Notes: generated by a model not told the origin, from the letters alone. Positions 9,947 through 29,882 are shown, numbered from the stretch's first letter. The stretch is 64,000 bases of DNA from Candidatus Marinacidobacterales bacterium (GCA_965247365.1 CBDFHB010000002.1:2002567-2066566); one strand, 5' to 3'. Program-made: numbers and translations.

Positions 9947-10273
9947 CGTTTATGTTGGCATCATCGGCCGGCGGTACCAGAGCCGTCTGCAGTAAGAAAC
10001 CTGGTATCACGACAAAAATCCAATCTTGTCCAGCCAATTGGTCCTGGGGTGACGTGCGAACGGCTGAGATGGTTCCAACTTGGTTCCAAACCAGCGTGCC
10101 CTACGGTGCCCTAAGAGTCTTATCTCGCGCCGTCTTCCTTTGTTTAGGTGCTCTTAGGTTACGGTGGGTCTTCCTGGTTCGTAAGGGTGCAAATTCGTAA
10201 TCAGCAGGCCGGCGGTTCAAATCCGCCCGCCGGCGGAACATGTCAACAACATTGAGACACTCGCGAGCTGCAT

Positions 10274-11407
10274 TTAGTGAGCCTCGATTAACTTTCGGCG
10301 ACTGGTGATGTCCGCGTGGTCGACGTCTGCTTCGCTCGCGATCTCGTTGGGTGAAGCAGAAAAAGGGGGTACCCCAGGTATGGACGACGCCGAGAGAATG
10401 GCTCCTGCGGCATCCTGGAGCGTCGTTTTCTGCGGCGGCGGGTTGATCCAGGCCTGAGGAGGCAAAACGGGAGGTTGTGGCGTTCCGCGAACGAAGCGCT
10501 CGGGATGAGCACGCTGAGCCTCGAGAAGGATCTGGCGCCGAGCGGTGGTGAGTTGTTCGGCGCGACCGTAGTGAACGTCGGCCGGTGTCATAAGGCCGAC
10601 CCCCGAGTGCCGGTGGTCATTGTTGTAGTAGTCGAAGAAACCGCGGCAGAACAGCCGGCTGTCTTGGATGGAACCAAAACGGCTGGGGAACTGAGGGCAA
10701 TACTTGAGCGTTTTGAACTGAGACTCGGAGTAGGGATTGTCGTTCGAGACGTAGGGTCTGGAGTGGGTCTTGGTCACGCCGAGGTCTGCCAAGAGCAAAG
10801 CCACGGACTTGCTTCGCATCGAGCTGCCACGATCCGCGTGCATGGTGAGCTGGTCTGGTTCAATGTTTTGCTTGCGACAGCTCTCGGCGATGAGGCGTTT
10901 CGCGAGCTCGGCGCTTTCTCGGTGAGCCAGCATCCAGCCAACCACGTAGCGGGAGAAGATGTCGAGGATGACGTAGAGATAGTAGTAGGTCCACTTGACG
11001 GGGCCACGAAGCTTCGTGATATCCCACGACCAAACCTCGTTGGGCGCCTCGGCCAACAGCTCCGGCTTGGCGTAATTCGGATGGCGCAGTTGGTTCCGGC
11101 GCTCTCGGACCTCGCCGTACTTTTCCAAAATCCGATACATCGTGCGAATCGAGCAGAGGTAGATTCCCTCGTCCAGAAGCGTGGCCCACACCTGCGCGGG
11201 CGCCTTGTCGACGAAACGCTCACAGTGCAAGGCTCCGAGGACCTTCTCGCACTCGGTCTCGTCGAGGGCTCGGTGCGGCCGAGGACGACGCTTCGGTTTG
11301 GGCGTCACCAGCTGGCGCCTGCGATACAACGTGGAACGAGCCACACTCAGAGCCTCGCAGGCTTCCGCCGTCTGCCCAATCTGTCCCGCCAGCTCCTCGG
11401 CCGCCAC
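10274..11407 (-). CDS. IS transposase OrfB (DDE integrase-core/rve domain), 377 aa
   Basis: WSWDITKL...YLYVILDIFSRYVVGW...HADRGS...YNNDHRHSGVG are typical rve-domain DDE motifs. Protein is identical in all three copies. Confidence 0.8.
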   Translation of the reverse strand: MAAEELAGQIGQTAEACEALSVARSTLYRRRQLVTPKPKRRPRPHRALDETECEKVLGALHCERFVDKAPAQVWATLLDEGIYLCSIRTMYRILEKYGEVRERRNQLRHPNYAKPELLAEAPNEVWSWDITKLRGPVKWTYYYLYVILDIFSRYVVGWMLAHRESAELAKRLIAESCRKQNIEPDQLTMHADRGSSMRSKSVALLLADLGVTKTHSRPYVSNDNPYSESQFKTLKYCPQFPSRFGSIQDSRLFCRGFFDYYNNDHRHSGVGLMTPADVHYGRAEQLTTARRQILLEAQRAHPERFVRGTPQPPVLPPQAWINPPPQKTTLQDAAGAILSASSIPGVPPFSASPNEIASEADVDHADITSRRKLIEAH

Positions 11408-11409
11408 AA

Positions 11410-11877
11410 TCAGTCGTTCTCGTCGCTGTCGAGCGGATTCAGGGGGATCCCCAGCAGTTCGGAGGCTTTTTTTTGGATCTCCAACATCGTCTCCACTCGA
11501 GCCAGGCGACGTTGGAGCCGGGCGTTCTCGCGCTCGAGCTCCTTGACCCGTGGATCCTCTGCCTTCGCCTTCCGGCCTCGCTTTCTCGACGTCAACCCCG
11601 CCTTCGCGATCTCGTCACGTTGGCGGCGCCAACTCGATAGCTGCGACGAGTACAGGCCCTCTCGACGCAGAAGTGCCGCAATATCCCCGACACCCTTGCA
11701 GGCGTCGGCCTCGCGCACTAGCCGCAGCTTGTACTCCGCGGTAAAGCGTCGACGCTTCGCTTGCTCACTCACTTCCGTTTCCGGGACCCCCGCCGCATCG
11801 CGGCCGGCGGGATCTCCAGTCGCCCTACGGGCTCCTTCCGTTCCCGCCGGGGTCATTCTCTCAATCAATGAACTCAT
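11410..11877 (-). CDS. IS transposase OrfA (HTH transposase_8-like plus coiled coil), 155 aa
   Basis: RRRFTAEYKLRLVREA...GDIAALLRREGLYSSQLSSWRRQ HTH, followed by a leucine-zipper-like C-terminus. Lies 2 nt upstream of OrfB without overlap. Confidence 0.75.
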   Translation of the reverse strand: MSSLIERMTPAGTEGARRATGDPAGRDAAGVPETEVSEQAKRRRFTAEYKLRLVREADACKGVGDIAALLRREGLYSSQLSSWRRQRDEIAKAGLTSRKRGRKAKAEDPRVKELERENARLQRRLARVETMLEIQKKASELLGIPLNPLDSDEND

Positions 11878-11947
11878 TGATGATCCTCCTCCGCCCTACA
11901 CACTAATTTCAAGGGGCGAAGTGTCTCAAGGATGTTGGCACAGAGGG

Positions 11948-12141
11948 GCTTCGCTTGCTCACTCACTTCCGTTTCCGGGACCCCCGCCGCATCGCGGCCG
12001 GCGGGATCTCCAGTCGCCCTACGGGCTCCTTCCGTTCCCGCCGGGGTCATTCTCTCAATCAATGAACTCATTGATGATCCTCCTCCGCCCTACACACTAA
12101 TTTCAAGGGGCGAAGTGTCTCAAGGATGTTGGCACAGAGGG
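11948..12141 (-). mobile_element. Partial head-to-tail copy of the same IS (left end plus first ~41 codons of orfA, 194 bp) abutting copy 1
   Basis: The sequence from IRL through ...GAGCAAGCGAAGC is immediately followed by a fresh IRL (CCCTCTGTG...). This produces the short ORF 11874..12071. Confidence 0.7.
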
Positions 12142-12730
12142 CGGCTCCATTTAAATCAATTAGTTACAGAGAATCAGATATCAGCGAGATCGCCAATAGG
12201 GGACAATTAGGGGACGATTTCGCTAAATGTCAGGCACCGCTCAAAAGCGGGTGGTTGTTTCAAACGGTTTCACGCCGTTTCGTCCTAGCGAATAAGCTCA
12301 TTTTACGAAACGAACCCAATCTTGCTCTGCCAGGGTACTTGCCCAGCACACGCGATTATTTTCGATAAGTATCGTTCCCTCCGGCTGTGCTCGCGCGCCA
12401 AAGATGAGAGCCCCCGTTGCGCTACACGGTTCATAGGGCAACGATTTACGGATTTGATTCAGATGGTTTCGGAGCCGCCGATCGACAGGCCTGATGTGCT
12501 TCACGACGATGAGGGCGTTCTTCCAGTCGAACATTCTGGCCAGCGCCGCCATCATGAATCGCGTTGCGTTATCGGTACGGCGTGGCGTTTGCTCACGCTC
12601 GACGAAGAAGGTGAGCTGCATCGCTGGTGTTGTTTGGCTTAAGATACACTCTCCCGCCGGAAGCGCCACTTCCGTTTGGCCTTTGAGCGCTCCTGAACAA
12701 CGCTCGCGCGGGAGCCGAGGGTGAGGACGA

Positions 12731-13801
12731 ATGACGCTACGACAGCTCGGTTACTGGGTTCGCAAGGCGAAGGTGCAGCTCAAGGGTTGGTCCCCGGATA
12801 GAGATCGCGAATATCACGACTCGATATTTGCGGAAGCGCATCACGACCCTTTCAGTGATTCCTATCCCGGTCACATCACTATCCGCCGCTTTGCCGACCT
12901 CGTGTCCCCTCATCTGTCTGGCGCACATCATGTCCTGGATCTCGGGTGCGGTACGGGTGAGATCACCTGCCAGCTGGGCCGGTTCCACTCGGGCGTGAGC
13001 TTCGAAGGTATCGACCACAGTGAAGCGGGCATCGAGCGGGCAAGGGCCAACGCCGAGCGACTCGAGCTTTCGAACGTTTCCTTTCGGAAGGCCGACGTGG
13101 AGCATTTCGAGCCCGACCGCTCCGTCGATGTGCTGATGATGCTGGACGCGTTTCATCACCTCGTCGATCCGAAGCGATTTGTCGAGCGCCTGGGCGCGTT
13201 CACGAAAGCCTTTCTTCTGATCGAGCCTCGGGGCGACTGGAAGGGGACCTGGAACCGAGAGGTCGATTTCGACTGGTTGGTCCATGATCTGGAGAAGATT
13301 CGGGCCCGCATCGCTTACGCGACGGGAGAGTCGGAGTTGATGAAGCCCACCCTCCTGCCCAAAGGGGAGGAACAAGGAGAGCCCGTCGAGCATCGTTACA
13401 CGGTAGAGGACTTTCGACGGTTTTTCCGGGGCTACGGCCTTCAGATTCGAGGCACGATCGCCGGTATCGAGAGCTACCCTCCGAGCCCGGAGCTCGAGAG
13501 CCCCAGCCGTGAGCGGTTCGGACGGCTCGGCTACGAGCTCTATTCCGAAGTCGATGAGATGCTACGCGCGCGGAACCTCGATCTCTTAGCCAAACACCTG
13601 GTCATTCATGCCGAGCGGGGAGCTGCGGATTCTCTTCGCGCTCCGGCGGAAAAGCCGGAGGACGTGCCGTGGACGACACCCATCCAAGGGCCGTACGATG
13701 TGCTGTGGCTGAGCTACGACGGGACCGAACGAGGCTCCGGTAAGTCAAGAGTTCTTAGCTCAGGTGCGGCTGCGAAACACCAGCTCGCGCTCCTGGTCTA
13801 G
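12731..13801 (+). CDS. Class I SAM-dependent methyltransferase
   Basis: VLDLGCGTGE (motif I), ...FRKADVEHF..., DVLMMLDAFHHL. Corresponds to the Methyltransf_11/12-like fold. Confidence 0.75.
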   Translation: MTLRQLGYWVRKAKVQLKGWSPDRDREYHDSIFAEAHHDPFSDSYPGHITIRRFADLVSPHLSGAHHVLDLGCGTGEITCQLGRFHSGVSFEGIDHSEAGIERARANAERLELSNVSFRKADVEHFEPDRSVDVLMMLDAFHHLVDPKRFVERLGAFTKAFLLIEPRGDWKGTWNREVDFDWLVHDLEKIRARIAYATGESELMKPTLLPKGEEQGEPVEHRYTVEDFRRFFRGYGLQIRGTIAGIESYPPSPELESPSRERFGRLGYELYSEVDEMLRARNLDLLAKHLVIHAERGAADSLRAPAEKPEDVPWTTPIQGPYDVLWLSYDGTERGSGKSRVLSSGAAAKHQLALLV

Positions 13802-14497
13802 TGACGACCCCGAACGACCCGATTATCTCAGCTACCATTGGCTCGATCGACGGGGTGGCATCGTCGAGTTCGATGGACCGAGAACCGCGATACGCGTCCG
13901 GCCCGGTGAGGAAGTAGACGTCAGCCTCCATGCGAAGACGCTCGCCCAACCAGGTCGATACGTATTGGCGCTCGATCTCGTCCAGGAATCCAGAACCTGG
14001 TTCAGCAAGGCCGGCAGTCCCTGCCTGCGCGTCCCGTTCTTCGCTCGGAAACCGCGATAGCCCGCGCCGGCCCTCGTGGAGTCGCGGCGCGGGCGTTCGT
14101 GCACTAGGGCGATTCCGTGAGCTTTAGATCGTGACCGTGTTTTCGCGCGATCGCACCACATCGATGCGGACATGGGCGCGTTGCTACGCTTGGCCGTCGA
14201 CGCGGTGGACGGACGCGCGGCGGCTCATCCGAGATTGCCCAAGGCGACGGAGCCAACACCGAAGGCGTTACCAACGCGCTCGAGACTGCGATGAAGCTAC
14301 TCGTGTCGTAGCGCTTCGACCGCTTGGACACGAATCGCCCGTCGCGCCGCTTCTCGCCTCGGACGGGGCCGGGGCAGAGGTGCGGATCAACGAGGGGGCA
14401 CACCGGGGGCACAAAGTCACAGATGACCGACGATTATCGTAAAAAGAGCCGACTCCCGGAACAAGAATACGCGCGTCCGAATGAAAGGAGCTTTTCA

Positions 14498-14725
14498 ATG
14501 CCCGAGTATCCGCGAGTGACTATTCAGATTGCTGACAAACCCGACGAGCTTACTCTTACCCCCGGTCCAGTCCGTTCCGTGAAGTTCGACTTTCCGGATG
14601 GTCATTCCTTCACCGTCGAGTGTGAGTTTGAGGGGGATCTCCCGACCCTGGTCATTTCAGCCAACCGAAAGCTAGAGGAACCCAACAGGGGGCCTTTTGT
14701 TGTTGTGGTCAGGCCTGACAAGTAA
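14498..14725 (+). CDS. Small hypothetical protein (75 aa)
   Basis: ATG is preceded by GAAAGGAG. Same frame as the downstream GAF-Lon ORF but separated from it by TAA. Confidence 0.4.
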   Translation: MPEYPRVTIQIADKPDELTLTPGPVRSVKFDFPDGHSFTVECEFEGDLPTLVISANRKLEEPNRGPFVVVVRPDK

Positions 14726-14758
14726 GAGAGGCCCGCCCCCTCACTCGTACCCGTCACC

Positions 14759-16330
14759 ATGCATGGGATTCTGGAGGCAATGGCCCTCATCATTGAGGAC
14801 GAGCGTCCTGGCATGAAGTGCTCGGTGCTGCTCCTGGACGATGCAGGCCGTCGCGTCAGCGTGGGCGCGGGTCCGAGCTTGCCGGACGAATACAATAGCG
14901 CCGTCGAAGGTCTGTTGATCGGGCGTGGCGTGGGATCGTGTGGCACCGCTGCCTACTGGAATGAGCGTGTCATCGTGGAGGACATCCATCGGGGAAGTTC
15001 ATCCGGCGGAGGAGGTCCTGGAAGCGGGGTCGGAACGGAGGGGGTCGAACGAACCGGTCCAACCGCCAAGGCAAACGAGCATCGAACTGAGGGACATGAA
15101 CTCTACCGCTCGGCCAGTCCAGCATCATCCGCTTGCAGAAACGACTTCAAATCCGCCATCGATGAGAAGGTGTCTCGAATCGTGGGTGATGGGCGCGCAG
15201 CCGATGGTCGTAGCTCCGACGAACTCGGTGGGTTCTCGTCCGCGATGCTCGAGATCCTCGACCCGCAGCAAAACGACACGTTTCGTGACAACTACCTCGA
15301 TTTGCCGTTCGATCTATCGAGCGTTTTCTTCATTACGACCGCGAACACCCTCGATACTATTCCGCGCCCGCTCCTCGACCGCATGGAGGTGTTGTCGCTC
15401 ACCGGCTACAGCGAGGAAGAAAAACTAGGTATCGCCAAGAAGTATTTGTTGCCTCGCCAGCTCGAGGAGAGCGGCGTCACCGCGGAGCAGTGCGAGCTTC
15501 CCGATGACACGCTGTTACGGCTGATTCGTCGCTATACGCGTGAAGCCGGGCTCCGCCAACTCGAGCGCATCATCGGCCGGGTCGTACGCAAAGTTGCGGT
15601 CGGTTTCGCTGAGGGGAAAACAGATCCGGTCACGGTCACGCCCGACGACCTGGTCGACATGCTCGGACCAGAAACGTTTCACATCGAGAAGGCGCGCGAC
15701 GAGATGCCGGCTGGCGTCGCAGCCGGTCTCGCGTGGACGCCCGCCGGCGGTGACGTGCTCTACATCGAATCGGCGCTCCTTCCGGGAGGGAGCGGGCTGA
15801 CGATGACGGGGCAGCTCGGAAGTGTCATGCAAGAATCCGCCCGCGCCGCACAGAGCTATCTTTGGTCGCACGCGGAAGAGTTCGAGATCGATCCGGAGCG
15901 CTTCAAGAACACCGGTGTTCACCTTCACGTTCCCGCAGGAGCGATACCCAAAGACGGGCCGTCCGCCGGCATCACCATGGCGACCGCGCTCGCTTCTCTC
16001 TACTGCGGAAAGGCGGTGCGATTGGATACCGCCATGACGGGGGAGATCACCATCACCGGTCTCGTGCTCCCGATCGGGGGAGTGAAGGAGAAAGTCCTCG
16101 CGGCCCGCCGGGCGGAGTTCAAGCGCATCATTCTGCCGCGGCAGAACGAGGCGAATCTACACGACCTGCCCGATGACGTGCGCGCGGAGACGGAGTTTAT
16201 CTTCGTCGACCACGTCGACGAAGTTCTCCGTGCGGCGATTCCCGACCTAATAAGCCGTCCTAGCGAAGCTGCGCCCAGGTTAAGGCACGATTCGGCTTAC
16301 CGTGCAGAAACCGAGCCTTTTCTGGAGTAG
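14759..16330 (+). CDS. Chimeric GAF-domain / Lon-protease C-terminal protein (lacks the Lon N-domain and Walker A)
   Basis: N-terminus CSVLLLDDAGRRVSVGAG...GLLIGRGVGSCGTAAYWNERVIVEDI is GAF-like. From about aa 175, LEILDPQQNDTFRDNYLDLPFDLSSVFFITTANTLDTIPRPLLDRMEV...DGPSAGITMATALASL...GEITITGLVLPIGGVKEK is co-linear with the Lon AAA+ sensor region and the S16 protease domain (Ser-Lys dyad region). Confidence 0.7.
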   Translation: MHGILEAMALIIEDERPGMKCSVLLLDDAGRRVSVGAGPSLPDEYNSAVEGLLIGRGVGSCGTAAYWNERVIVEDIHRGSSSGGGGPGSGVGTEGVERTGPTAKANEHRTEGHELYRSASPASSACRNDFKSAIDEKVSRIVGDGRAADGRSSDELGGFSSAMLEILDPQQNDTFRDNYLDLPFDLSSVFFITTANTLDTIPRPLLDRMEVLSLTGYSEEEKLGIAKKYLLPRQLEESGVTAEQCELPDDTLLRLIRRYTREAGLRQLERIIGRVVRKVAVGFAEGKTDPVTVTPDDLVDMLGPETFHIEKARDEMPAGVAAGLAWTPAGGDVLYIESALLPGGSGLTMTGQLGSVMQESARAAQSYLWSHAEEFEIDPERFKNTGVHLHVPAGAIPKDGPSAGITMATALASLYCGKAVRLDTAMTGEITITGLVLPIGGVKEKVLAARRAEFKRIILPRQNEANLHDLPDDVRAETEFIFVDHVDEVLRAAIPDLISRPSEAAPRLRHDSAYRAETEPFLE

Positions 16331-17381
16331 GTGTGCTCTCAGAACCTGCTGACTATCTATCATCCGCCGGCCTAGAACTCTCTTTTCATGAATGCGTTCC
16401 AGGAAGCGGTCACCAGTCGGTCGCATCAAAACTGGTGCGAATCGCTGGGAGATTGCCAGTGGCCATGTTGGGGCTTCTGACGACCTAACGTGGCAAACTC
16501 GGCCTGCGGAAGAACCGGATGCCCTGGGAAACCAAAACCTTCACGCGCGAAGAACTGTATCAGTTGGTATGGGGGCGACCCGTCCAGCACGTGGCCGAGA
16601 GCATCGACGTCTCGGATGTGGCCCTTGGAAAAACGTGTCGGCGGCTCGGTATCCCAGTCCAGCCACAGCTCTCTCTCGATCGTCAAACTCCTCGAGAGCA
16701 GTTACCGCTCGCATCCATCATTCCTCGGCTTCATCCACGCGCCCCAATGCGGCCACCGTTTGTCCTAGTGCGAAACGATCCGCTGCCGCGTGGGAACCAG
16801 CAGGCAACTCGTCGCGAATCCGCAATCTCTGCCTGAAGCACTTCTCGGCCTGGTCGTAGTCCTTACGCCCTTGGGCGATATGTCCGGAAGTGCTGAGGAG
16901 ATTTGCGATCATATGGGGCTCGCGTGAAGCGGGGCATCTTGCAGTGACCTCAAAACATCGAGTAACGCGAATCAGTCAATCCGGTCGTCGCGTGCTGGCC
17001 TCTCCCGTGGAGCTCGAGACGATGCCAACGCATGTGACCCACGGAGTTGGGCGGGGACCGACGCCAACCTTCTTGCCGACCCCCGCCCTCCTTGCTCACA
17101 CTAGATATATACGACTTCCCGAGTCGAATTTTCTCCCCGAGAGAAGAAAGCTCAACGGCGCAGCCACCTGGAAGCGGGGTCAGTCCACAAGCGTCGTCGC
17201 TTCGTCGGCTCGATCGGTGAATACTGTGCCGAGGCTTTCGGAGTGGATAGGAAAGTACATGCGCACCGTACAACCCGCGGAACTCGGCCCACCGTTGGTC
17301 ACCGTGCCACCATGCCGGCGCACGATTCGCGACGACCACGGCGAGGCCAAGCCCCCCTCTTTCCTGGACAAGGCGCGTCCG

Positions 17382-17837
17382 CTACCAGGTCTTCTTAACC
17401 CATCCGCGATGGTTCAGAAAGAGGATGTGCTCGTGCGAGCGAATCAACTTGCCAACAAGTGCTGCGGTCAAGTCGACCTTCAAATGCCCCAAGGCGAACG
17501 CGCGCAATTTCCTCAACGCGTTGGACATGAGTATTCCTCCAAGGGCCTCGCGATCCATGGCATATCGCAAGATCAGCCCACGCGGAAAGGAGGCCAAGGA
17601 ACCCTTCCAGACGCTTACCTTGAACAGCACATGTTGCTGCGGATGCTCCTCCGTCTCGAACTTTCTGAACATCTGGATTCGCTCGAATCCCCGGACCTTC
17701 AGCGGCTCCCAGCTCTGCTCGGAGTCTGTCAGGCGAACGATGGGAGCGTTCGCGTCTTGGTCGAAAGCCAGGACGGCGGCGGCCTCCACGACGTCCATTG
17801 TCTTGAGGAAGGGATCAGTGTCGGGCACCGCCACCAC
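17382..17837 (-). CDS. Hypothetical protein (possibly a gene remnant) in an ORF-poor 2.3-kb stretch
   Basis: 151-aa ORF with plausible residue composition. No family recognised. Neighbouring ORFs look like noise. Confidence 0.25.
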   Translation of the reverse strand: MVAVPDTDPFLKTMDVVEAAAVLAFDQDANAPIVRLTDSEQSWEPLKVRGFERIQMFRKFETEEHPQQHVLFKVSVWKGSLASFPRGLILRYAMDREALGGILMSNALRKLRAFALGHLKVDLTAALVGKLIRSHEHILFLNHRGWVKKTW

Positions 17838-18696
17838 AACACCTCCAAGCCGCGACGTCCCCGCGTCGTGGGCGGCGGAGTGAGGGGACGAAACCTACCT
17901 CTCACCCCGCCGCCCATACAACAGGGTGGACTAATCCTTAGAATGCAACGGTCGTGCCATTCGTTCTGCAAGCAGGGGGCCGGGACAGTGGGATCACCGG
18001 AGCCGCTTTTCGTTCAAGAACTTCGACCGTATTCAGAGCACAGAAAACGTCGGCGCACATCGCACTGCGAGTGTCGCAACTGCGGTATCGGTCCCGCAGT
18101 CCCGTGGGCTGCTCCCCATACGGATTTCAACTCGAAACGGCGACTCGCAACGTGATCCGTCTGGCGCGCTGGGAGACAGGTGCCCGCATCTCTGTCGGCT
18201 ACCGGCTGAGCCCCGAGGCCCGGGGCCTGCGGGAGTAGCCGGCAGGCGAAGCTCAGTCAGACCGACTATCTCGAAGAAGCTGATTCTCGCGGATTCGGGA
18301 AAGAGGAAGCAAACGAAAGACGGGATGACGAAGTGTAGAAAAAAAATGGGGCGGCTTTGAAAGGCTTCGCAGCCGCCCCGAGGTGTCAACGACTCACGCC
18401 GTTACACGTGAATCGGGGTCCTGCGACCGTTGATCCTTTCGAGCGATTCGGCGCACTTAGGGCGCACGAATGGCGGCTTGCGGTAGTGGTCTAGTTTGAT
18501 TTATTCGGTTCCCAAAAGTGCCCCTTGCCCCCGAGCCCCCATTCCTTGATTTCCGTCCACTTTGCTCCGCCGCTATCGGTGCGATGCGAACAGAACCTCG
18601 CTAAACCGAATTTCCAGCGACAACTCGCTAGTTTCCCAATGGTGGCACGAGGTTTGCTTAATCTTCAGAACACAGATCCCAACTCGGGAGGTGCCC

Positions 18697-19902: not shown

Positions 19903-20628
19903 CTATCCGAACTTCCCTTCCAGCTTGGGGTAGCAGCCCCGAAGACGCGAAAGACTGCTATTGGGACATTCGGGGAAGGAGAACGACAAGCTATGATTCT
20001 CCAGCATGTAGCGGACCGCCTTGCCGAAGTCGCTTCGCGGCAGTCCCCGCTGGGTCAGTGCCCATTCGCGGATCGAGCTCAAGATCGGCCGCGAACGTTC
20101 TTTGCGTAGACGAAGCCTCAGCTTCTGAGCCTCTTCATCGCCGGGAAACGGGCCTGGAACCAGACGCTCGACCTCGTAAAGCTCTCCGATCAGGCGAAGC
20201 ACTTCGGAGCAAGCCTGCGGGTAGTGCTCGCTGGCTTCATCGAACTTCCGTTTGACGTGCGCCCAGCAATGGGCGAGTCGAATCTCGGGGCCCGCACGGG
20301 CGAGCACTTCATAAACGGCGTAACCATCAACAACCGCGATGCCGCGATAGTTTCCCAAAACCTTCCGGCCATCCTCCGTCGATTTCGTCGGCAGCATCCG
20401 GTAGTACGCAATGTCGGGACTCGACACCCCCCAAACCGTGCCCGCCGATTTCTTCTTCGAGCCCATCAACGGCCACCGGGGTTTCGTCCGCGTGGATGGC
20501 GGGCGATTCCAGCACCTTCTTTCCCAGGGCGTCGTACACGGGTACAGACTTGTCACGACGGGGTGCGGCGAGTACTTACTGAACAGATGCAGCCTTTTGG
20601 CCACAGGCGTGCAGGTTTTTCGCCACAC
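19903..20628 (-). pseudogene. IS66-family transposase (TnpC) remnant, N-terminally truncated and frameshifted
   Basis: KKKSAGTVWGV...GIAVVDGYAVYEVL...RLAHCWAHVKRKFDEA is the IS66 TnpC core. The LHADETPV motif lies in a different frame (ORF 20327..20539). No zinc-finger N-terminus is present. Confidence 0.6.
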
Positions 20629-20753
20629 TTATCCGCACAACTCCCCTTGTAACTGCATTGCCGATGATTCCTTAAAGCACCCATTCATCACGGACTTGGA
20701 GCGAATCACCTGCGGGGGGGTCCTTTTGGTACGAATCCTGCTGCAACAGTGGA

Positions 20754-21730: not shown

Positions 21731-21997
21731 ACCCCCTCCCCGCTCCCACAAACCCTGGGAGAGGATATTCGGAGTGCTGACAGTTTGCAATGACACGCAT
21801 GACGGTCCCAGAGCGAGCGTTCAAATCCCGGATTGGGTTGACCGGGTCGTCTCGGTACCACTGAAATTGCCTACACCAGCGACAGGTTGCCCCTGTAGTG
21901 GCGGACGCTGTACTCGGCCATCGCTATATCGTTCGTTGCGGTCCCCTGGCCCGTCAGCTTAGAGGTCTGAGACGATGTCAGCCATGCCGGTATTCGT

Positions 21998-22026
21998 GAT
22001 AGGGGGTCGCGAGGCCCCCACCAGCC
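21998..22026. repeat. GC-rich hairpin element GATAGGGGGTCGCGAGGCCCCCACCAGCC (copy 1), terminator-like, 3' of the interrupted OMP gene
   Basis: Palindromic GGGGG..CCCCC core. A near-identical 27-mer occurs at 24848..24874. Confidence 0.5.
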
Positions 22027-22298
22027 TTACCTTGCGGCTAGGTCGCCATGCAGAACCCCGCAAGCTCTTCTTCAATCCTCTAGAAACGTACCCCCGCTAG
22101 GACCGACCACAGCCAGCCGGCGTCACTCTCGAGGATTGTCTGACCCATGAATTCCACGGTGAACTGTCGATTCAACTCGACACCGCCCATGATCTGAACC
22201 CCAGGGTCCTTGAACCATTCGCTTTCGGCCCTCTGTGCCAACATCCTTGAGACACTTCGCCCCTTGAAATTAGTGTGTAGGGCGGAGGAGGATCATCA

Positions 22299-22766
22299 AT
22301 GAGTTCATTGATTGAGAGAATGACCCCGGCGGGAACGGAAGGAGCCCGTAGGGCGACTGGAGATCCCGCCGGCCGCGATGCGGCGGGGGTCCCGGAAACG
22401 GAAGTGAGTGAGCAAGCGAAGCGTCGACGCTTTACCGCGGAGTACAAGCTGCGGCTAGTGCGCGAGGCCGACGCCTGCAAGGGTGTCGGGGATATTGCGG
22501 CACTTCTGCGTCGAGAGGGCCTGTACTCGTCGCAGCTATCGAGTTGGCGCCGCCAACGTGACGAGATCGCGAAGGCGGGGTTGACGTCGAGAAAGCGAGG
22601 CCGGAAGGCGAAGGCAGAGGATCCACGGGTCAAGGAGCTCGAGCGCGAGAACGCCCGGCTCCAACGTCGCCTGGCTCGAGTGGAGACGATGTTGGAGATC
22701 CAAAAAAAAGCCTCCGAACTGCTGGGGATCCCCCTGAATCCGCTCGACAGCGACGAGAACGACTGA
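22299..22766 (+). CDS. IS transposase OrfA (copy 2)
   Basis: Identical protein to 11410..11877. Confidence 0.75.
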   Translation: MSSLIERMTPAGTEGARRATGDPAGRDAAGVPETEVSEQAKRRRFTAEYKLRLVREADACKGVGDIAALLRREGLYSSQLSSWRRQRDEIAKAGLTSRKRGRKAKAEDPRVKELERENARLQRRLARVETMLEIQKKASELLGIPLNPLDSDEND

Positions 22767-22768
22767 TT

Positions 22769-23902
22769 GTGGCGGCCGAGGAGCTGGCGGGACAGATTGG
22801 GCAGACGGCGGAAGCCTGCGAGGCTCTGAGTGTGGCTCGTTCCACGTTGTATCGCAGGCGCCAGCTGGTGACGCCCAAACCGAAGCGTCGTCCTCGGCCG
22901 CACCGAGCCCTCGACGAGACCGAGTGCGAGAAGGTCCTCGGAGCCTTGCACTGTGAGCGTTTCGTCGACAAGGCGCCCGCGCAGGTGTGGGCCACGCTTC
23001 TGGACGAGGGAATCTACCTCTGCTCGATTCGCACGATGTATCGGATTTTGGAAAAGTACGGCGAGGTCCGAGAGCGCCGGAACCAACTGCGCCATCCGAA
23101 TTACGCCAAGCCGGAGCTGTTGGCCGAGGCGCCCAACGAGGTTTGGTCGTGGGATATCACGAAGCTTCGTGGCCCCGTCAAGTGGACCTACTACTATCTC
23201 TACGTCATCCTCGACATCTTCTCCCGCTACGTGGTTGGCTGGATGCTGGCTCACCGAGAAAGCGCCGAGCTCGCGAAACGCCTCATCGCCGAGAGCTGTC
23301 GCAAGCAAAACATTGAACCAGACCAGCTCACCATGCACGCGGATCGTGGCAGCTCGATGCGAAGCAAGTCCGTGGCTTTGCTCTTGGCAGACCTCGGCGT
23401 GACCAAGACCCACTCCAGACCCTACGTCTCGAACGACAATCCCTACTCCGAGTCTCAGTTCAAAACGCTCAAGTATTGCCCTCAGTTCCCCAGCCGTTTT
23501 GGTTCCATCCAAGACAGCCGGCTGTTCTGCCGCGGTTTCTTCGACTACTACAACAATGACCACCGGCACTCGGGGGTCGGCCTTATGACACCGGCCGACG
23601 TTCACTACGGTCGCGCCGAACAACTCACCACCGCTCGGCGCCAGATCCTTCTCGAGGCTCAGCGTGCTCATCCCGAGCGCTTCGTTCGCGGAACGCCACA
23701 ACCTCCCGTTTTGCCTCCTCAGGCCTGGATCAACCCGCCGCCGCAGAAAACGACGCTCCAGGATGCCGCAGGAGCCATTCTCTCGGCGTCGTCCATACCT
23801 GGGGTACCCCCTTTTTCTGCTTCACCCAACGAGATCGCGAGCGAAGCAGACGTCGACCACGCGGACATCACCAGTCGCCGAAAGTTAATCGAGGCTCACT
23901 AA
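22769..23902 (+). CDS. IS transposase OrfB, DDE/rve (copy 2)
   Basis: Identical protein to 10274..11407. Confidence 0.8.
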   Translation: MAAEELAGQIGQTAEACEALSVARSTLYRRRQLVTPKPKRRPRPHRALDETECEKVLGALHCERFVDKAPAQVWATLLDEGIYLCSIRTMYRILEKYGEVRERRNQLRHPNYAKPELLAEAPNEVWSWDITKLRGPVKWTYYYLYVILDIFSRYVVGWMLAHRESAELAKRLIAESCRKQNIEPDQLTMHADRGSSMRSKSVALLLADLGVTKTHSRPYVSNDNPYSESQFKTLKYCPQFPSRFGSIQDSRLFCRGFFDYYNNDHRHSGVGLMTPADVHYGRAEQLTTARRQILLEAQRAHPERFVRGTPQPPVLPPQAWINPPPQKTTLQDAAGAILSASSIPGVPPFSASPNEIASEADVDHADITSRRKLIEAH

Positions 23903-24552
23903 ATGCAGCTCGCGAGTGTCTCAATGTTGTTGACATGTTCCGCGGACTCTCCAAATGCGCTGAGCTTCACATAGTTGGACAGGAGCCCGACACCACCGCC
24001 CACGTACGGGCGAATCTTTTCTTGCTCTGACTTCCATTTGACGTTTACGAAAACATTCGCCGGAACGGTTTTGAAATTGATGTCGCCTTCCGTTCTGCTA
24101 CGGTAGGCGCCTTGAAACTCCAACCCGATAAAGCCTTGGGGGCCGAATGCGCCCCAATCGCTTCCCACCGAGGCGAACCAGCGATCTGTAAATCCTCCAA
24201 GATCACTGTTCAAGTTGATGCCGAGCTTCAAGAAAGCATCCCCGGCCAGGAGAGCTGGCGGTGCAGACAGGAACGCGGCCGTCAAGATGATGGCGATTGT
24301 CCAGCGTGTCATTTTCTTGTCCCTTTCGTGCTCGACGAAGAGCGAGCTTCTAGCGATGCGAAACCGCCGAAAAGTGTCGGCCCTCACGCTTCTTCGTCTA
24401 AGGTAGTGTGCTGATAAAGAACATTGTCGCACAAATTTTTGAACCTGTCTCGTCAGTTGGTAGTGGTTTTAGTCTGATTAGACCACCCGTTTTTTCTCCT
24501 CGGCCGGGCCTTGATTTCCATAGATTTGACCCCCATCATTGAAATACAGGAA

Positions 24553-24852
24553 ATGGCTCTGATCTCGTGCAACGCGTGCCACCGCAAGAACAGGATCCCT
24601 GAGCATCCAAAAGGGACTGCCGTCTGTGGATCATGCGGAGCTAGGCTTCCCAATCAACTGCAAAGGGCTGCCGGTACGCTAGGGCTCGGTGTCGCCGCAG
24701 CATGGGCCTTCCCAGTCGCGTGCGTTGCCCCAATGGGGGCCCTCTCAATTGGAATGCTCGCGAGCATTCTACTGCTTTTCAAGGCCTCTACATGGGGGAC
24801 CACTAAACCCAAGAGGGACGCGAGCGGGACGAATATCGGGACGGTTGGATAG
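24553..24852 (+). CDS. Small membrane protein with an N-terminal zinc-ribbon (CxxC...CxxC) and two TM helices
   Basis: MALISCNACHRKNRIPEHPKGTAVCGSCGARL then hydrophobic segments. Followed by hairpin copy 2. Confidence 0.4.
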   Translation: MALISCNACHRKNRIPEHPKGTAVCGSCGARLPNQLQRAAGTLGLGVAAAWAFPVACVAPMGALSIGMLASILLLFKASTWGTTKPKRDASGTNIGTVG

Positions 24853-24874
24853 GGGGCCGCGAGGCCCCGCCAGC
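24848..24874. repeat. GC-rich hairpin element copy 2 (GATAGGGGGCCGCGAGGCCCCGCCAGC)
   Basis: 25 of 27 positions match 21998..22026. Lies immediately 3' of a + strand gene. Confidence 0.5.
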
Positions 24875-25206
24875 TTCAAACCTCATTGATATGAATATCG
24901 ATTTCCGCCTCGAGAATCTTGCCGAGAGTTGTCGTGATTTCGAACTCGAGGCGATGTATCTCACTATCTGCCCCGCCTTTAATCTTCTGAATCGCTTTCG
25001 TGCCGGGTAAGACCCCAGCCGTGCCGGCGACGAGTGAAAGCCGACCGCCAAGAGCGGGGTCAAGCCTCGCGCAAGGCTGGCACGCCTAGCGAGTTCACTT
25101 GGTGCGCCATTGCGTGCGTTCTCGCAGGATGGTAGCCTCGAATAGCTGCAGATTGTCAAGCTAGTCGAGTCGCGCAATAGCCACTCGAGAAACATGGGGG
25201 TCGACC

Positions 25207-25808
25207 ATGAAAAGGCTGGTACTGCTTTTGGCTCTCTTGATTTCCGCCTCTGCGTTTGGTCAGTCTCTCACCGAACTCGCGAAGAAGGAGAAGGAGCGGC
25301 GTAAGACCAACAACAAGGAAGCTGTCGTTGAGGTGAACCAGAGCGACGTCGCGGTAGATGAGACTCCGGTGTCGATCGCGGAAGGCGACGATGTAGAGAC
25401 GACAGGCGGAGAAACGACGACCACGAAAGACAAGCCGGAGGCAGAAGCAACATCGACCGGGGATGAGTGGTCCACAATCTTTAAAGGGTTCCAGGCACGA
25501 TACCGGGGGAAGCTAAGGCTGAGCACGACGAAGACGTCGCGACCGTCGAGCAGGTGAAAGCGCAGTGCTCTTACAACCACATCGGCGAGCCGACCGTCCG
25601 CGATAAGGAAAAAGGCGTCCGGCAAGAGGGGTTGCCCGTCGGCCTCATCATGGGCGGTACGATGCAATACGGCTCTTGTGACACCATAGATTACGACCTG
25701 AAAGCCGCAAAAGAGAAGCGTGCCGACAAGCTTCAAGCGATCCAGCAGGAGTGCTACAGCGAAGCGAAGGCCCGGGGCGTTTCGCTCCGTGAAGCGTATC
25801 TGCAATAA
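25207..25808 (+). CDS. Secreted acidic T/E-rich protein; two ORFs (25207..25557 and 25554..25808) that merge across a G5 tract
   Basis: Signal peptide MKRLVLLLALLISASAFG. Shifting the frame by one base at CCGGGGGA (25505..25509) gives a continuous ~200-aa protein (...FQARYRGEAKAEHDEDVATVEQVKAQCSYNHIG...). Confidence 0.45.
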
Positions 25809-25958
25809 ACTTCTGGCCTAGTCCCAAAGGGCAGCGCAACAGGTCGGGTAAGACCCGAGCCGGGCGGGGCTCCCTGCGGGTGGTCGCGCTTCCAACTGAA
25901 AGCGCCATCGCCGTTCACGTGGTGGCGGCACGAGCGCCACGGTCGTTCACCCAGACGC

Positions 25959-26702
25959 CTAGCCGGGAGCGGAACGTTTTTTCGCTTCGAGGAAGGCGTT
26001 CCTGTAGATGAACAACAACATCTTGCGGGATTCCGTGAATTCGGTCCGCTCCAAACGCTTGATAGCTTCTTGGGCTAGTGGGGTTGGCGAGTCGTTCTCG
26101 CGAAACACCTCTTCTGCCGTTTCCAGGATGTCTTTCAGCGATACTGTTTCAGCGAAGTTCCCAAACTCCGACTCCCGCCCGGCGATAGCGGCTTTGCGTG
26201 CCCGCCCGGCCTGGCGGGAATAGTGCATCACCATGGTCAATGGTTGTGCGAAGCCAAGCCGCTTAAGTTCCTTCCGCACGGCCTGGCCAACGGTGAAGAA
26301 CTTCGCTCCCGGTTTCGCTACCACCTCGATTTCTTGCTTGAGCAGTGTGTACCAGCGGGCATACCTTGCGGGTCGGTCGACGTTGGCGAGCTCGACGGTC
26401 ATGGCCCCTTTCGATACGTCCGTGAGGTGATAGGTCTGACCAGGACCACACGGATGGCGTCGGGCGGCGGCGTGCAAGATGAAGTCCTCCAGGGAGTAGC
26501 TGAAGTTCCGAAAACCCTCAGCGATACGTTTGCGGGCAGCTTCCGGTGTCTTGGCCCACTGACCCCGCGATGGTTCCATGCAGATGAGTACGTAATCAGC
26601 CGGTCCCTTGGGCCGGAAGTTGGGCAGGAACACGTCGCCGTCGCGGTCGGCAAGCTCCCGGGCTTGCTGTTCAAGGAGGCGCATGTAGGTGTCGACGTCC
26701 AT
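25959..26702 (-). CDS. Hypothetical protein (247 aa), no family recognised
   Basis: Complete ORF with good residue composition. Region is GC-typical. Confidence 0.45.
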   Translation of the reverse strand: MDVDTYMRLLEQQARELADRDGDVFLPNFRPKGPADYVLICMEPSRGQWAKTPEAARKRIAEGFRNFSYSLEDFILHAAARRHPCGPGQTYHLTDVSKGAMTVELANVDRPARYARWYTLLKQEIEVVAKPGAKFFTVGQAVRKELKRLGFAQPLTMVMHYSRQAGRARKAAIAGRESEFGNFAETVSLKDILETAEEVFRENDSPTPLAQEAIKRLERTEFTESRKMLLFIYRNAFLEAKKRSAPG

Positions 26703-26929
26703 TCTAGGTGCGTGGGGTCAGCGCTTCTGCCTAGTGCACGCTGACGATCGGGCCTTGTTGCGCAAGGTTCCCGCAGACTTGAACGGTTCGTGAAGGCCAC
26801 CGAAGGAGTCCCAATAGTCTCTCACCATGGGGATCTCGTGCTTGCTCATAATAGCCGTTCCCAGAGCTTGTTAGGTGTTGCGTGGAATCTACCACGGGCT
26901 ATTTGTAAGGAACACTTCTTTCTGGCCTA

Positions 26930-27490
26930 ATGGTCGCCGAGGCTCACGTGATCGCTAGGCTCGTTTTCTGCACAACGGCGGTCCTTACGGTTGCCACCTC
27001 GGTCCCCGCTCAGACCTTCCAGGCCAAGGTCGTCGGGATCTCCGATGGCGACACTATTAAGGTCTACGACATTAAGGTCTACGACGGCCAGACGCAGACC
27101 CGAATCCGCCTCGAAGGGATCGACTGCCCGGAGAGCGGGGCGGACTTCTCCAATCGAGCCAAGCAGCTCACATCCGATCTCGTCTTCGGCAAGCGGGTCC
27201 GCATCGAGGGCAAGGAGCGGGATCAGTACGGACGCCTAGTCGCTCGAGTCTTTGTTGGCGACATAGACCTCTCTCTCGCCCTGGTCGAAGCTGGACTTGC
27301 CTGGCACTACAAGCAGTATTCGGACGACGCGGTCCTCGCGGCTGCGGAGGTCGTCGCCAGGACAAAGAAACTCAGCATGTTCAGCGGGGCGAGACGCCCC
27401 TTCACGGGGCTGAATGCCGTGCTCCGGACCCCAACCGACGAGAGGCCGGTCACGCTCGACTCACGACGATCCAGCTCTACCTTTATATAG
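26930..27490 (+). CDS. Secreted thermonuclease (staphylococcal-nuclease-like, SNase fold)
   Basis: GISDGDTIKVYD...RIRLEGIDCPES...GKRVRIEGKERDQYGRLVARVFVGDIDLSLALVEAGLAWHYKQY matches SNase Ca-site and catalytic residues. Contains an in-frame 15-bp tandem duplication (27056..27085, IKVYD x2). Confidence 0.75.
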   Translation: MVAEAHVIARLVFCTTAVLTVATSVPAQTFQAKVVGISDGDTIKVYDIKVYDGQTQTRIRLEGIDCPESGADFSNRAKQLTSDLVFGKRVRIEGKERDQYGRLVARVFVGDIDLSLALVEAGLAWHYKQYSDDAVLAAAEVVARTKKLSMFSGARRPFTGLNAVLRTPTDERPVTLDSRRSSSTFI

Positions 27491-27752
27491 ACGAAAAAGC
27501 GGACAGTAGACCTCCCTCCAATGCGGCATTCAAAATGAAGATTGCCGATTTGACCGCCTGCCTGCAAAGGATATATACACCTGGGCATGTTTGCGGGAGG
27601 AATCTCGCGGCCAATCAATTTACCTGAAGACGTCGCGGATTCCGGGGGAAGGGAGTAGCTGGTCTGCGCCGAGTTGCTCTCGGTCTGCCCCTCGTTCACG
27701 AGGCGCTCCGACAAACGTGGCACACCCACCTGCCACCGGGAAGGAAAATCGC

Positions 27753-27871
27753 ATGCTGACTCAACATCTCATCAGGAATCTCGTCTCGGTCGGGCTAACT
27801 GTAGCCCTTTCCACTTTACTGGCTGCCCCAGCAAGTGCGGATACACCATGTCCAACGCTTCTATTCGATCT
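27753..27871 (+). pseudogene. 5' fragment of a secreted-protein gene truncated by the IS256-like element
   Basis: MLTQHLIRNLVSVGLTVALSTLLAAPASADTPCPTLLFDL, then the ORF reads into the IS256-like end (SRFPWK). Confidence 0.4.
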
Positions 27872-28167
27872 GTCCCGCTTCCCGTGGAAATAAGAATGGC
27901 GTAACCTCCGGTTAACCAAAACCAAACCGCGCCTGGAAAGGCGAGGAGGAGGATTACGCCATGAAGAAGCCTACCACCATATCGAACGAGTCAGTAAGCG
28001 AGTACCGGGAGTTCGTCCAGCTTCGGCTGCGCAAGCGGGTGCTGGAGGCGATCGAGGTCGTGCTCGAGGAGGAAGTGGAGCAAGCGCTGGGGTGTCGTAG
28101 CTACGAGCGTGCGGAAGGACGTCGTGGTTATCGCAACGGGGCCGAGACCCGTCGCGTGACGACGGCC
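27872..28167 (+). mobile_element. IS256-family element, 5' fragment (left IR plus first ~69 codons of the transposase), cut by IS3-like copy 3
   Basis: GTCCCGCTTCCCGTGGAAATAAGAATGGCG... and MKKPTTISNESVSEYREFVQLRLRKRVLEAIEVV...ETRRVTTA are co-linear with the intact copy at 32819..34174 (same left end, about 97% aa identity). Confidence 0.7.
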
Positions 28168-28237
28168 CCCTCTGTGCCAACATCCTTGAGACACTTCGCC
28201 CCTTGAAATTAGTGTGTAGGGCGGAGGAGGATCATCA

Positions 28238-28705
28238 ATGAGTTCATTGATTGAGAGAATGACCCCGGCGGGAACGGAAGGAGCCCGCAGGGCGACTGGA
28301 GATCCCGCCGGCCGCGATGCGGCGGGGGTCCCGGAAACGGAAGTGAGTGAGCAAGCGAAGCGTCGACGCTTTACCGCGGAGTACAAGCTGCGGCTAGTGC
28401 GCGAGGCCGACGCCTGCAAGGGTGTCGGGGATATTGCGGCACTTCTGCGTCGAGAGGGCCTGTACTCGTCGCAGCTATCGAGTTGGCGCCGCCAACGTGA
28501 CGAGATCGCGAAGGCGGGGTTGACGTCGAGAAAGCGAGGCCGGAAGGCGAAGGCAGAGGATCCACGGGTCAAGGAGCTCGAGCGCGAGAACGCCCGGCTC
28601 CAACGTCGCCTGGCTCGAGTGGAGACGATGTTGGAGATCCAAAAAAAAGCCTCCGAACTGCTGGGGATCCCCCTGAATCCGCTCGACAGCGACGAGAACG
28701 ACTGA
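28238..28705 (+). CDS. IS transposase OrfA (copy 3)
   Basis: Identical protein to the other copies. Confidence 0.75.
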   Translation: MSSLIERMTPAGTEGARRATGDPAGRDAAGVPETEVSEQAKRRRFTAEYKLRLVREADACKGVGDIAALLRREGLYSSQLSSWRRQRDEIAKAGLTSRKRGRKAKAEDPRVKELERENARLQRRLARVETMLEIQKKASELLGIPLNPLDSDEND

Positions 28706-28707
28706 TT

Positions 28708-29841
28708 GTGGCGGCCGAGGAGCTGGCGGGACAGATTGGGCAGACGGCGGAAGCCTGCGAGGCTCTGAGTGTGGCTCGTTCCACGTTGTATCGCAGGCGC
28801 CAGCTGGTGACGCCCAAACCGAAGCGTCGTCCTCGGCCGCACCGAGCCCTCGACGAGACCGAGTGCGAGAAGGTCCTCGGAGCCTTGCACTGTGAGCGTT
28901 TCGTCGACAAGGCGCCCGCGCAGGTGTGGGCCACGCTTCTGGACGAGGGAATCTACCTCTGCTCGATTCGCACGATGTATCGGATTTTGGAAAAGTACGG
29001 CGAGGTCCGAGAGCGCCGGAACCAACTGCGCCATCCGAATTACGCCAAGCCGGAGCTGTTGGCCGAGGCGCCCAACGAGGTTTGGTCGTGGGATATCACG
29101 AAGCTTCGTGGCCCCGTCAAGTGGACCTACTACTATCTCTACGTCATCCTCGACATCTTCTCCCGCTACGTGGTTGGCTGGATGCTGGCTCACCGAGAAA
29201 GCGCCGAGCTCGCGAAACGCCTCATCGCCGAGAGCTGTCGCAAGCAAAACATTGAACCAGACCAGCTCACCATGCACGCGGATCGTGGCAGCTCGATGCG
29301 AAGCAAGTCCGTGGCTTTGCTCTTGGCAGACCTCGGCGTGACCAAGACCCACTCCAGACCCTACGTCTCGAACGACAATCCCTACTCCGAGTCTCAGTTC
29401 AAAACGCTCAAGTATTGCCCTCAGTTCCCCAGCCGTTTTGGTTCCATCCAAGACAGCCGGCTGTTCTGCCGCGGTTTCTTCGACTACTACAACAATGACC
29501 ACCGGCACTCGGGGGTCGGCCTTATGACACCGGCCGACGTTCACTACGGTCGCGCCGAACAACTCACCACCGCTCGGCGCCAGATCCTTCTCGAGGCTCA
29601 GCGTGCTCATCCCGAGCGCTTCGTTCGCGGAACGCCACAACCTCCCGTTTTGCCTCCTCAGGCCTGGATCAACCCGCCGCCGCAGAAAACGACGCTCCAG
29701 GATGCCGCAGGAGCCATTCTCTCGGCGTCGTCCATACCTGGGGTACCCCCTTTTTCTGCTTCACCCAACGAGATCGCGAGCGAAGCAGACGTCGACCACG
29801 CGGACATCACCAGTCGCCGAAAGTTAATCGAGGCTCACTAA
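28708..29841 (+). CDS. IS transposase OrfB, DDE/rve (copy 3)
   Basis: Identical protein to the other copies. Confidence 0.8.
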   Translation: MAAEELAGQIGQTAEACEALSVARSTLYRRRQLVTPKPKRRPRPHRALDETECEKVLGALHCERFVDKAPAQVWATLLDEGIYLCSIRTMYRILEKYGEVRERRNQLRHPNYAKPELLAEAPNEVWSWDITKLRGPVKWTYYYLYVILDIFSRYVVGWMLAHRESAELAKRLIAESCRKQNIEPDQLTMHADRGSSMRSKSVALLLADLGVTKTHSRPYVSNDNPYSESQFKTLKYCPQFPSRFGSIQDSRLFCRGFFDYYNNDHRHSGVGLMTPADVHYGRAEQLTTARRQILLEAQRAHPERFVRGTPQPPVLPPQAWINPPPQKTTLQDAAGAILSASSIPGVPPFSASPNEIASEADVDHADITSRRKLIEAH

Positions 29842-29882
29842 ATGCAGCTCGCGAGTGTCTCAATGTTGTTGACATGTTCCGC

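Follow-up and report, generated by a model that had tools for sequence, protein, structure and literature searches.

Insertion sequences (IS) of the IS3 family are usually 1.2-1.55 kb long with target-site duplications (TSDs) of 3-5 bp (ISfinder ranges), and many of them possess an RNA stimulator downstream of the frameshift site. In the classical members IS911, IS3, IS150 and IS2, an orfA with a helix-turn-helix (HTH) domain is followed by an orfB with the DDE domain in the -1 frame, an A6G- or A7-type heptamer leads to an OrfAB fusion, the TSD is short and the imperfect inverted repeats (IRs) contain a TG...CA core (PMC6211511, PMC4066793). The transposase of IS3 members is produced by -1 programmed ribosomal frameshifting (PRF) at A6G/C/A motifs (PMC6211511), and both A_AAA_AAA and A_AAA_AAG are proven shift sites in these elements (PMC4066793). 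The features named for the classical members, with a TSD of 3 bp, are shared by a repeat located between 10 and 30 kb of a 64,000-nucleotide stretch of DNA from a Candidatus Marinacidobacterales bacterium (GCA_965247365.1, CBDFHB010000002.1:2002567-2066566), referred to below as the window. The repeat is with high confidence an IS3-family insertion sequence of 1714 bp that belongs to the clade of ISAzs23, makes OrfAB by a -1 shift and has been active recently, its copies having the histories reconstructed below. It represents a new addition to an already known IS3 subclade containing ISAzs23 and is biologically ordinary, with a conventional mechanism. It differs from the classical members in that its TG/CA core lies 7 nucleotides (nt) inside the tips, in that no downstream stem-loop or pseudoknot was detected and in its greater length; the amino acid (aa) identity to IS3, IS600, ISKpn18 and ISEc15 is merely 25-32%.

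The closest named relative is ISAzs23 from plasmid pAB510b of Azospirillum sp. B510 (NC_013856.1, about 152795-154390; the name is that of the RefSeq annotation), the OrfB of which is approximately 59% identical over 88%. ISAs20 (about 40%) as well as IS3 and IS600 (28-30%) follow at a distance. ISAzs23 shares with the window element an A8 run close to the end of orfA as well as the tips 5'-CCCTCTGTGCCAA... and ...GTTGACACGTTCCG-3'. Its coding sequence is annotated by PGAP as a single product of 1484 nt, a length that is not divisible by three and thus indicates joining across a frameshift. ISAzs23 is shorter (about 1596 bp versus 1714 bp), the window element being distinguished by an N-terminal extension of about 45 aa in OrfA and a longer C-terminal tail in OrfB. 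The two hosts belong to different phyla, ISAzs23 being found in Alphaproteobacteria and the window element presumably in Acidobacteriota.

Copies, coding capacity and family assignment

A repeat search combined with a three-way alignment revealed three full copies and one partial copy, all within 20 kb. Copy 1 occupies 10234-11947 on the minus strand (orfA 11410-11877, orfB 10274-11407, A8 run 11467-11474), while copies 2 and 3 are found on the plus strand at 22229-23942 and 28168-29881, respectively, the latter with orfA at 28238-28705, the shift heptamer at 28642-28648 and orfB at 28708-29841. Copies 1 and 2 are 100% identical over the whole length. The lone difference of copy 3 is a T>C exchange at IS nt 121 (window position 28288, plus strand), which turns the arginine codon CGT into CGC and is synonymous in OrfA; the OrfA (155 aa) and OrfB (377 aa) proteins are the same in all three copies. 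An earlier note on this DNA had described three near-identical copies at 10233-11947 (minus), 22229-23943 (plus) and 28168-29882 (plus), a single synonymous nucleotide polymorphism (SNP) in copy 3 and identical OrfA (HTH) and OrfB (DDE/rve) proteins. The repeat search, the alignment, the translations and the Pfam matches bear this out, and with 0-1 difference per copy in the pairwise alignment there is no substantial divergence. Its count of three is correct for full-length copies and overlooked the partial fourth one, which consists of IS nt 1-194 (the left end and the start of orfA) at 11948-12141 on the minus strand. This fragment matches nt 1-194 of copy 1 at 194 of 194 positions and abuts the left end of copy 1 head-to-tail.

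In copy 2, orfA (22299-22766, plus strand) is preceded by a strong Shine-Dalgarno sequence, GGAGGAGGA, and encodes a DNA-binding/regulatory protein of 155 aa with an HTH_Tnp_1 domain (PF01527, 37.8 bits). The orfB frame (22562-23902, plus strand) is in the -1 position relative to orfA; it is open from position 22562, and the called open reading frame (ORF) of 377 codons begins with GTG at 22769. Pfam identified both rve and rve_3 in OrfB. Thus the layout is that of the IS3 family, i.e. an HTH orfA followed by a partly overlapping rve orfB in the -1 frame, the overlap of the two frames amounting to 205 nt. The gap of 2 nt between OrfA and OrfB reported previously applies to the called ORFs and not to the frames themselves. 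With the NCBIfam model of IS3 family transposases, NF033516, OrfA covers positions 1-85 and OrfB positions 103-369 (184.8 bits), which is the pattern expected of a split OrfAB. A conceptual -1 fusion of 534 aa gives a continuous match to positions 1-369 of 369 with 228.5 bits, the cutoff being 160.

Residues Asp129, Asp192 and Glu228 of OrfB, located in the motifs WSWD(129)IT, HAD(192)RGS and YSE(228)SQFKTLK with spacings of 63 and 36, presumably form the DD(35)E triad, as recognized from these motifs inside the rve match. The assignment to IS3 rests on the domain order, the -1 frame, the heptamer, the curated hidden Markov model (HMM), the DD(35)E spacing and the 3-bp TSD. Two other placements were considered and rejected. 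The IS481 family model NF033577 reaches only 92-93 bits against a cutoff of 224. The IS1447 subgroup likewise belongs to the IS3 family, is abundant in certain genomes and reaches the orfB frame by means of a long run of A (A9) at the 3' end of orfA (PMC6211511); its OrfB, however, needs a +1 change through transcriptional slippage, whereas orfB of the window element is in the -1 frame and its motif fits a ribosomal -1 heptamer.

The slippery heptamer A_AAA_AAA is located at 22703-22709 in the zero frame of orfA, followed by a G at 22710, within an A8 run (22702-22709) that reads CAA AAA AAA GCC in the OrfA frame. A GGAG sequence is found a few nucleotides 5' of the heptamer. The conservation of the site was assessed by a scan of species-representative genomes with OrfB, which yielded at least 578 related stretches; the 79 best loci were retained, and both ends were located in 49 of these. 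A run of A7-A9 occurs at the same offset in nearly all of the approximately 79 loci, including those with only 62-69% aa identity; these distant relatives come from Planctomycetota, Nitrospiria, Thermodesulfobacteriota and Omnitrophota and mostly have A8G as in the window. A protein search furthermore retrieved relatives consisting of one ORF of 516-560 aa; these align with the conceptual fusion over 100% of its length and are 74-88% identical to it. The earlier note had seen no obvious -1 slippery fusion and had regarded the arrangement as atypical for classic IS3 members. Both statements have to be revised, since A_AAA_AAA_G lies in the zero frame within the 205-nt overlap, the fusion matches NF033516 over 1-369, and the layout is canonical for IS3 with the A-run kept down to 62% aa identity.

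In the proposed mechanism, OrfA would be made by conventional translation and a -1 shift at A_AAA_AAA_G near the end of orfA would yield OrfAB, a predicted transposase of 534 aa that combines the HTH domain, a leucine-zipper-like segment and the DD(35)E rve core. By analogy with the rest of the family, the element would move by a copy-out/paste-in route via a circular intermediate.

Element ends and target-site duplications

The left end, CCCTCTGTGCC..., is invariant among the 49 relatives with both ends located. The base counted as the 1715th in the earlier note may be A, C, G or T in these relatives and is identical to the base that stands third from last in the left flank. With ...GTTCCG taken as the right end, a perfect direct repeat of 3 bp flanks 30 of the 49 relatives, about 0.8 of 49 being expected by chance (binomial P of about 1e-41), while a boundary shifted by one base or another TSD length resulted in at most 11 matches, except for sub-strings of the 3-bp repeat. 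Based on these 30 repeats and the poorer alternatives, the element is 1714 bp long with a TSD of 3 bp. The length of 1715 bp given previously has therefore to be reduced by the final C, which is the first base of the TSD; as for the ends said to be shared by the copies, the left one stands as described and the right one loses its last base to the TSD.

A short TSD, a trait of the IS3 family, is thus present at copy 2, at the composite formed by copy 1 and the partial copy, and at 30 of the 49 relatives, the remaining 19 having none. Copy 2 is flanked by CGG at 22226-22228 and 23943-23945 (plus strand), the first base of the latter being the supposed 1715th. The composite is flanked by CCG in the orientation of the element (CGG on the plus strand), at 10231-10233 on the side of the right end and at 12142-12144 on the side of the left end. 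All four triplets consequently read CGG on the plus strand, which is probably a coincidence or a mild bias for GC-rich targets; the TSDs of the relatives are diverse and CCC is the commonest of them.

The imperfect left inverted repeat (IRL, 22229-22260, plus strand) has the tip CCCTCTG, the TG of the TG...CA core beginning at nt 8, and the imperfect right one (IRR, 23911-23942, plus strand) ends with ...GTTGACATGTTCCG. Aligned in register, the two match at 19 of 32 positions. The tips 5'-CCCTC[T/C][G/C]TGCC... and ...TTGACA-N3-TCCG-3' are kept in relatives from Planctomycetota, Nitrospiria, Thermodesulfobacteriota, Vicinamibacteria, Chromatiaceae and Azospirillum. Shared tips together with a run of A7-A9 that precedes the start of orfB by about 60-70 nt, found in relatives of at least six phyla and in ISAzs23, characterize the ISAzs23-like clade to which the window element belongs.

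The right end also contains the hexamer TTGACA (23930-23935, plus strand), a perfect -35 type sequence that faces outwards 7 nt from the right tip and is kept across phyla, all relatives having it at the corresponding place. If a circle junction with a spacer of 3 bp were formed, its -35 sequence would be perfect and the -10 partner, TGCCAA, poor. A junction promoter like that of IS911 receives no support from the consensus alone, and no sigma-70-type promoters were found in or around the element.

Copy histories and relatives

Copy 2 is a simple, recent insertion that splits a small gene resembling those of outer-membrane proteins. The N-terminal part of the host gene is located at 23946-24312 on the minus strand and begins with a signal-peptide-like sequence, MTRWTIAIILTAAFL..., and the C-terminal part at 22080-22228 on the same strand ends with ...LAGVRF. 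Excision of 22229-23945 in silico rejoins the two minus-strand fragments into one open frame of 171 aa with the C-terminus ...GVRF; an OMP_b-brl match spans the rejoined junction, although it is weak (E = 6.5e-4, below the gathering score). Neither half has decayed yet, and the fact that both are without frameshifts or stops and rejoin to a single ORF points to a young insertion.

The site of copy 1 has a more complex structure, as one pair of CCG duplications encloses [IS 1-194][IS 1-1714] (10234-12141). After removal of this composite and one TSD the flanks read GGCGGTTCAAATCCGCC-CGCCGGC-T-CCA. The rejoined flanks (10211-10233 and 12145-12149, plus strand) give GGCGG-TTCAAAT-CCGCC-CGCCGGC-T-CCA, corresponding to a T-arm, the 3' strand of an acceptor stem, a discriminator base and CCA. 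Judging from this resemblance, the target is a 3' tRNA-like fragment only; the 5' half of a tRNA is absent at the site and no second copy of the fragment is found in the window. An intact tRNA or transfer-messenger RNA (tmRNA) at this place was rejected, since ARAGORN was negative on the window and on excised sequences with 0-5 bp of TSD removed, and Rfam was negative both at the gathering threshold and at E <= 1. Possibly the fragment is what remains of an att-type site bordering an integrated element. The single TSD pair makes a nested history of three steps the simplest one: the element would have inserted into the tRNA-like 3' fragment, a second copy would have inserted into the first between nt 194 and 195, and homologous recombination between the two direct copies would then have deleted one of them, leaving [IS 1-194][IS 1-1714].

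Copy 3 is flanked by GCC and CAA and thus has no TSD. On its left side, an IS256-like (Transposase_mut) fragment comprising the first 300 bp of such an element (27867-28166, plus strand) is cut at the left tip of copy 3, and the sequence on its right side is unrelated. The fragment is 94% identical to a full IS256-like copy at 32877-34179 on the minus strand, which has a 402-aa Transposase_mut ORF at 32877-34085. The remainder of the truncated element (GTGGGAACTCGC...), sought as the inversion partner of copy 3, is absent from the window. Since IS copies lacking TSDs arise from recombination between IS copies or from adjacent deletion (PMC11708052), copy 3 is best read from its flanks as marking a deletion or recombination junction, produced either when it recombined with another copy or when adjacent DNA was deleted. 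It would have inserted into the IS256-like element and later lost one of its original flanks. The suggestion of the earlier note that the copies are linked to rearrangements nearby accordingly applies to copy 3, with its missing TSD and truncated IS256-like flank, and not to copies 1 and 2. Two such events were considered and rejected. In the orientation of the element, copy 1 is flanked by CCG and copy 2 by CGG on either side; with two different TSDs, each complete at its own copy, no inversion has occurred between these inverted copies. A composite transposon made of copies 2 and 3 or of copies 1 and 2 does not agree with the own TSDs of copy 2 and of the copy-1 composite and with the contiguous pre-insertion sequences that they restore; for copies 2 and 3, the outer flanks (CGG and CAA) are moreover unmatched.

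The nearest relatives of the window element, which number in the hundreds and have 80-92% aa identity, come from closed metagenome-assembled genomes (MAGs) of Candidatus Marinacidobacterales (Acidobacteriota, class Vicinamibacteria). The copies in these MAGs (OZ253507.1, OZ240210.1, OZ250169.1 and others) share with it 86-91% DNA identity, a length of 1708-1719 bp, the ends, the 3-bp TSD and the shift site. Dozens of near-identical copies are present per genome, often clustered or nested, and each genome has a sequence lineage of its own. Relatives often lie in tandem or within a few kb of one another, have fragments beside them or are broken up by other insertions (L003, L007, L017, L018, L024, L026, L035, L036, L037, L038 and L048), and this clustering together with the 19 of 49 copies without a TSD points to frequent IS-mediated rearrangement in the 8-10-Mb Marinacidobacterales genomes. 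An OrfB identical to that of the window (P0121) is recorded only on a separate 5.87-Mb contig, which (proteins P0009, P0121 and P0122) also encodes an E95G variant and a fused variant of 534 aa. In the latter, orfA continues into the orfB frame owing to one additional G (CTGGCT>CTGGGCT), situated about 30 nt 5' of the A-run, and 12 residues of the C-terminal region of OrfA are replaced. The identical OrfB and its variants on one contig suggest that the genome of the window probably holds more than three copies.

Alternative explanations and wider significance

Several points weigh against the interpretation of the repeat as a conventional IS3 element with the history given above. Its 1714 bp somewhat exceed the length of most IS3 members. 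Its ends read 5'-CCCTCTG...GTTCCG-3' (5'-CC...CG-3'), with the TG/CA core 7 nt inside them, in place of the TG...CA usual at the tips in the family; because these ends are also those of ISAzs23, which ISfinder lists as a member of IS3, this is treated as a trait of the clade and no ground for exclusion from IS3. Transposition and circle formation are predicted for the element from its family membership, and the nested insertions proposed for the partial copy are reconstructed from a structure that an untrimmed contig join would equally give. Finally, no conserved RNA structure was found 3' of the shift site, RNAalifold giving 0 pairs on 25 diverse sequences and the single sequence having z = -0.26 versus shuffles. 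This lack of a structure, together with the long A-run, makes the efficiency of PRF uncertain and transcriptional slippage a live alternative. RNA polymerase inserting one extra A on the A8 run could contribute to OrfAB, and slippage may even be its main source, the architecture being otherwise unchanged, which is considered possible although doubtful. The conserved A8-A9 run exceeds the length of heptamer needed for a ribosomal shift, and a conserved stimulatory structure was, as stated, not found. In addition, IS1447 of the same family slips on a run of nine A, of which seven suffice, at about 16% (PMC6211511), and AAAAAAA yields insertions and deletions in mRNA (PMC4066793). On the other hand, A_AAA_AAA and A_AAA_AAG in this very frame are classic ribosomal -1 sites of IS3 elements (PMC4066793), A8 followed by G in many relatives fits X_XXY_YYZ, and the upstream GGAG could stimulate the shift as an internal Shine-Dalgarno sequence. 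As the protein is the same by either route (...IQKK-SLRT...), the sequence alone cannot choose between them; PRF is most likely the cause of the shift. The version of the earlier note, namely an atypical element whose OrfA and OrfB come from two genes that do not overlap and are translated independently without a frameshift, is highly improbable. It would be in line with the 2 nt between the called ORFs and a possible GTG start of OrfB, but a convincing ribosome-binding site was not found before GTG 22769, the -1 frame is open for 205 nt upstream, across the conserved heptamer, the IS3 model is matched by the fusion in one stretch and with a higher score, and relatives are known both as single fused ORFs and as annotations joined across a frameshift.

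That the copies show 0-1 difference in 1714 bp is explained by a single master lineage having been active recently, in agreement with the recent transposition proposed in the earlier note. In three related genomes the copies are 99-99.9% identical to each other and 86-91% identical to the window element, and a contrast of this kind within and between genomes is typical of IS families that are lineage-specific and recently active. The same contrast could arise in part from gene conversion, as dozens of copies per related genome are kept at 99-99.9% identity, and the missing TSDs in 19 of 49 relatives imply frequent recombination between copies. That concerted evolution of old copies, instead of recent transposition, should account for the near-identity is nevertheless improbable: the gene halves split by copy 2 have no frameshifts or stops and form one ORF again when joined, two of the three sites retain an intact TSD, and the IS256-like copies of the same region have diverged to 94%, which indicates that homogenization is no general property of the region. 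A partial assembly artefact, be it copies homogenized by polishing, an untrimmed contig join that created the 194-nt partial copy or a chimeric join at copy 3, is rated as rather unlikely from the assembled sequence on which all these readings depend. The arrangement flank-IS[1-194]-IS[1-1714]-flank with one TSD pair does match an untrimmed end-to-end contig join, and a misjoin through a 1.7-kb repeat would give a copy without a TSD. In contrast, the private SNP of copy 3 shows that the copies were resolved individually, exact TSDs at two sites restore sensible pre-insertion sequences, the IS256-like truncation stops exactly at the tip of the element, and relatives in closed genomes of independent assembly have similar fragments and clusters around them.

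The length of the A-run varies from A7 to A10 among loci L001-L080 (e.g. L001:2936-2942 and L080:1264-1273), and the neighbouring C-run varies as well. The A10 run of L080, one of the single-ORF relatives, puts the two frames in phase and results in an in-frame OrfAB of 535 aa; the coverage of this contig is 2x, and a homopolymer error is possible. More generally, the variants of A-run length could be state-switching slippage mutations or homopolymer sequencing errors. A more far-reaching proposal is that the ISAzs23-like clade forms an unrecognized IS3 subgroup in which the chemistry of the ends and the logic of expression are distinct, including cleavage at 5'-CC...CG-3', OrfAB made on A8-A9 runs without an RNA stimulator, and switching by A-run length. 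This is considered unlikely. If it were true, ISAzs23-like elements would be cleaved 7 nt outside the usual TG/CA and OrfAB would possibly be made by transcriptional slippage. Heritable changes in A-run length (A7-A10, with fused variants of 534-535 aa) might then toggle copies between silent, regulated and constitutively fused states, and such switching could fuel the very large expansions in Marinacidobacterales.

The value of the conventional IS3 assignment is mainly one of annotation, as it supplies the exact ends, the TSD length and the shift site for an IS lineage that is greatly expanded in the large genomes of uncultivated Marinacidobacterales. The scale of this expansion is indicated by the at least 578 related stretches in species-representative genomes and by the three MAG chromosomes sampled best, each of which has dozens of copies. 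A literature search on 'Marinacidobacterales' found no papers. Gene callers will split the transposase into two ORFs and occasionally fuse them. The non-canonical tips, the undetected shift stimulator, the homopolymer-length variants in relatives and the scale of the expansion are points of mild interest. In the stretch of 10-35 kb, a recent disruption of an outer-membrane-protein-like gene is found together with at least one deletion or recombination event, and repeats of this kind act as breakpoints both for assembly and for true rearrangement.

The window is rich in genes of mobile elements from about 10 to 35 kb. An IS66-family transposase fragment is located at 19903-20628 on the minus strand, and an rve_3/HTH_21 ORF (34121-35020, plus strand) adjoins the IS256-like element. 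Other genes of this part, of mobile-element type or possibly truncated, encode an AAA_25 protein (30665-31756, minus strand), a staphylococcal-nuclease-like protein (26930-27490, plus strand) and a Lon_C/Lon_lid protein of 523 aa (14759-16330, plus strand), the AAA match of which is only partial.

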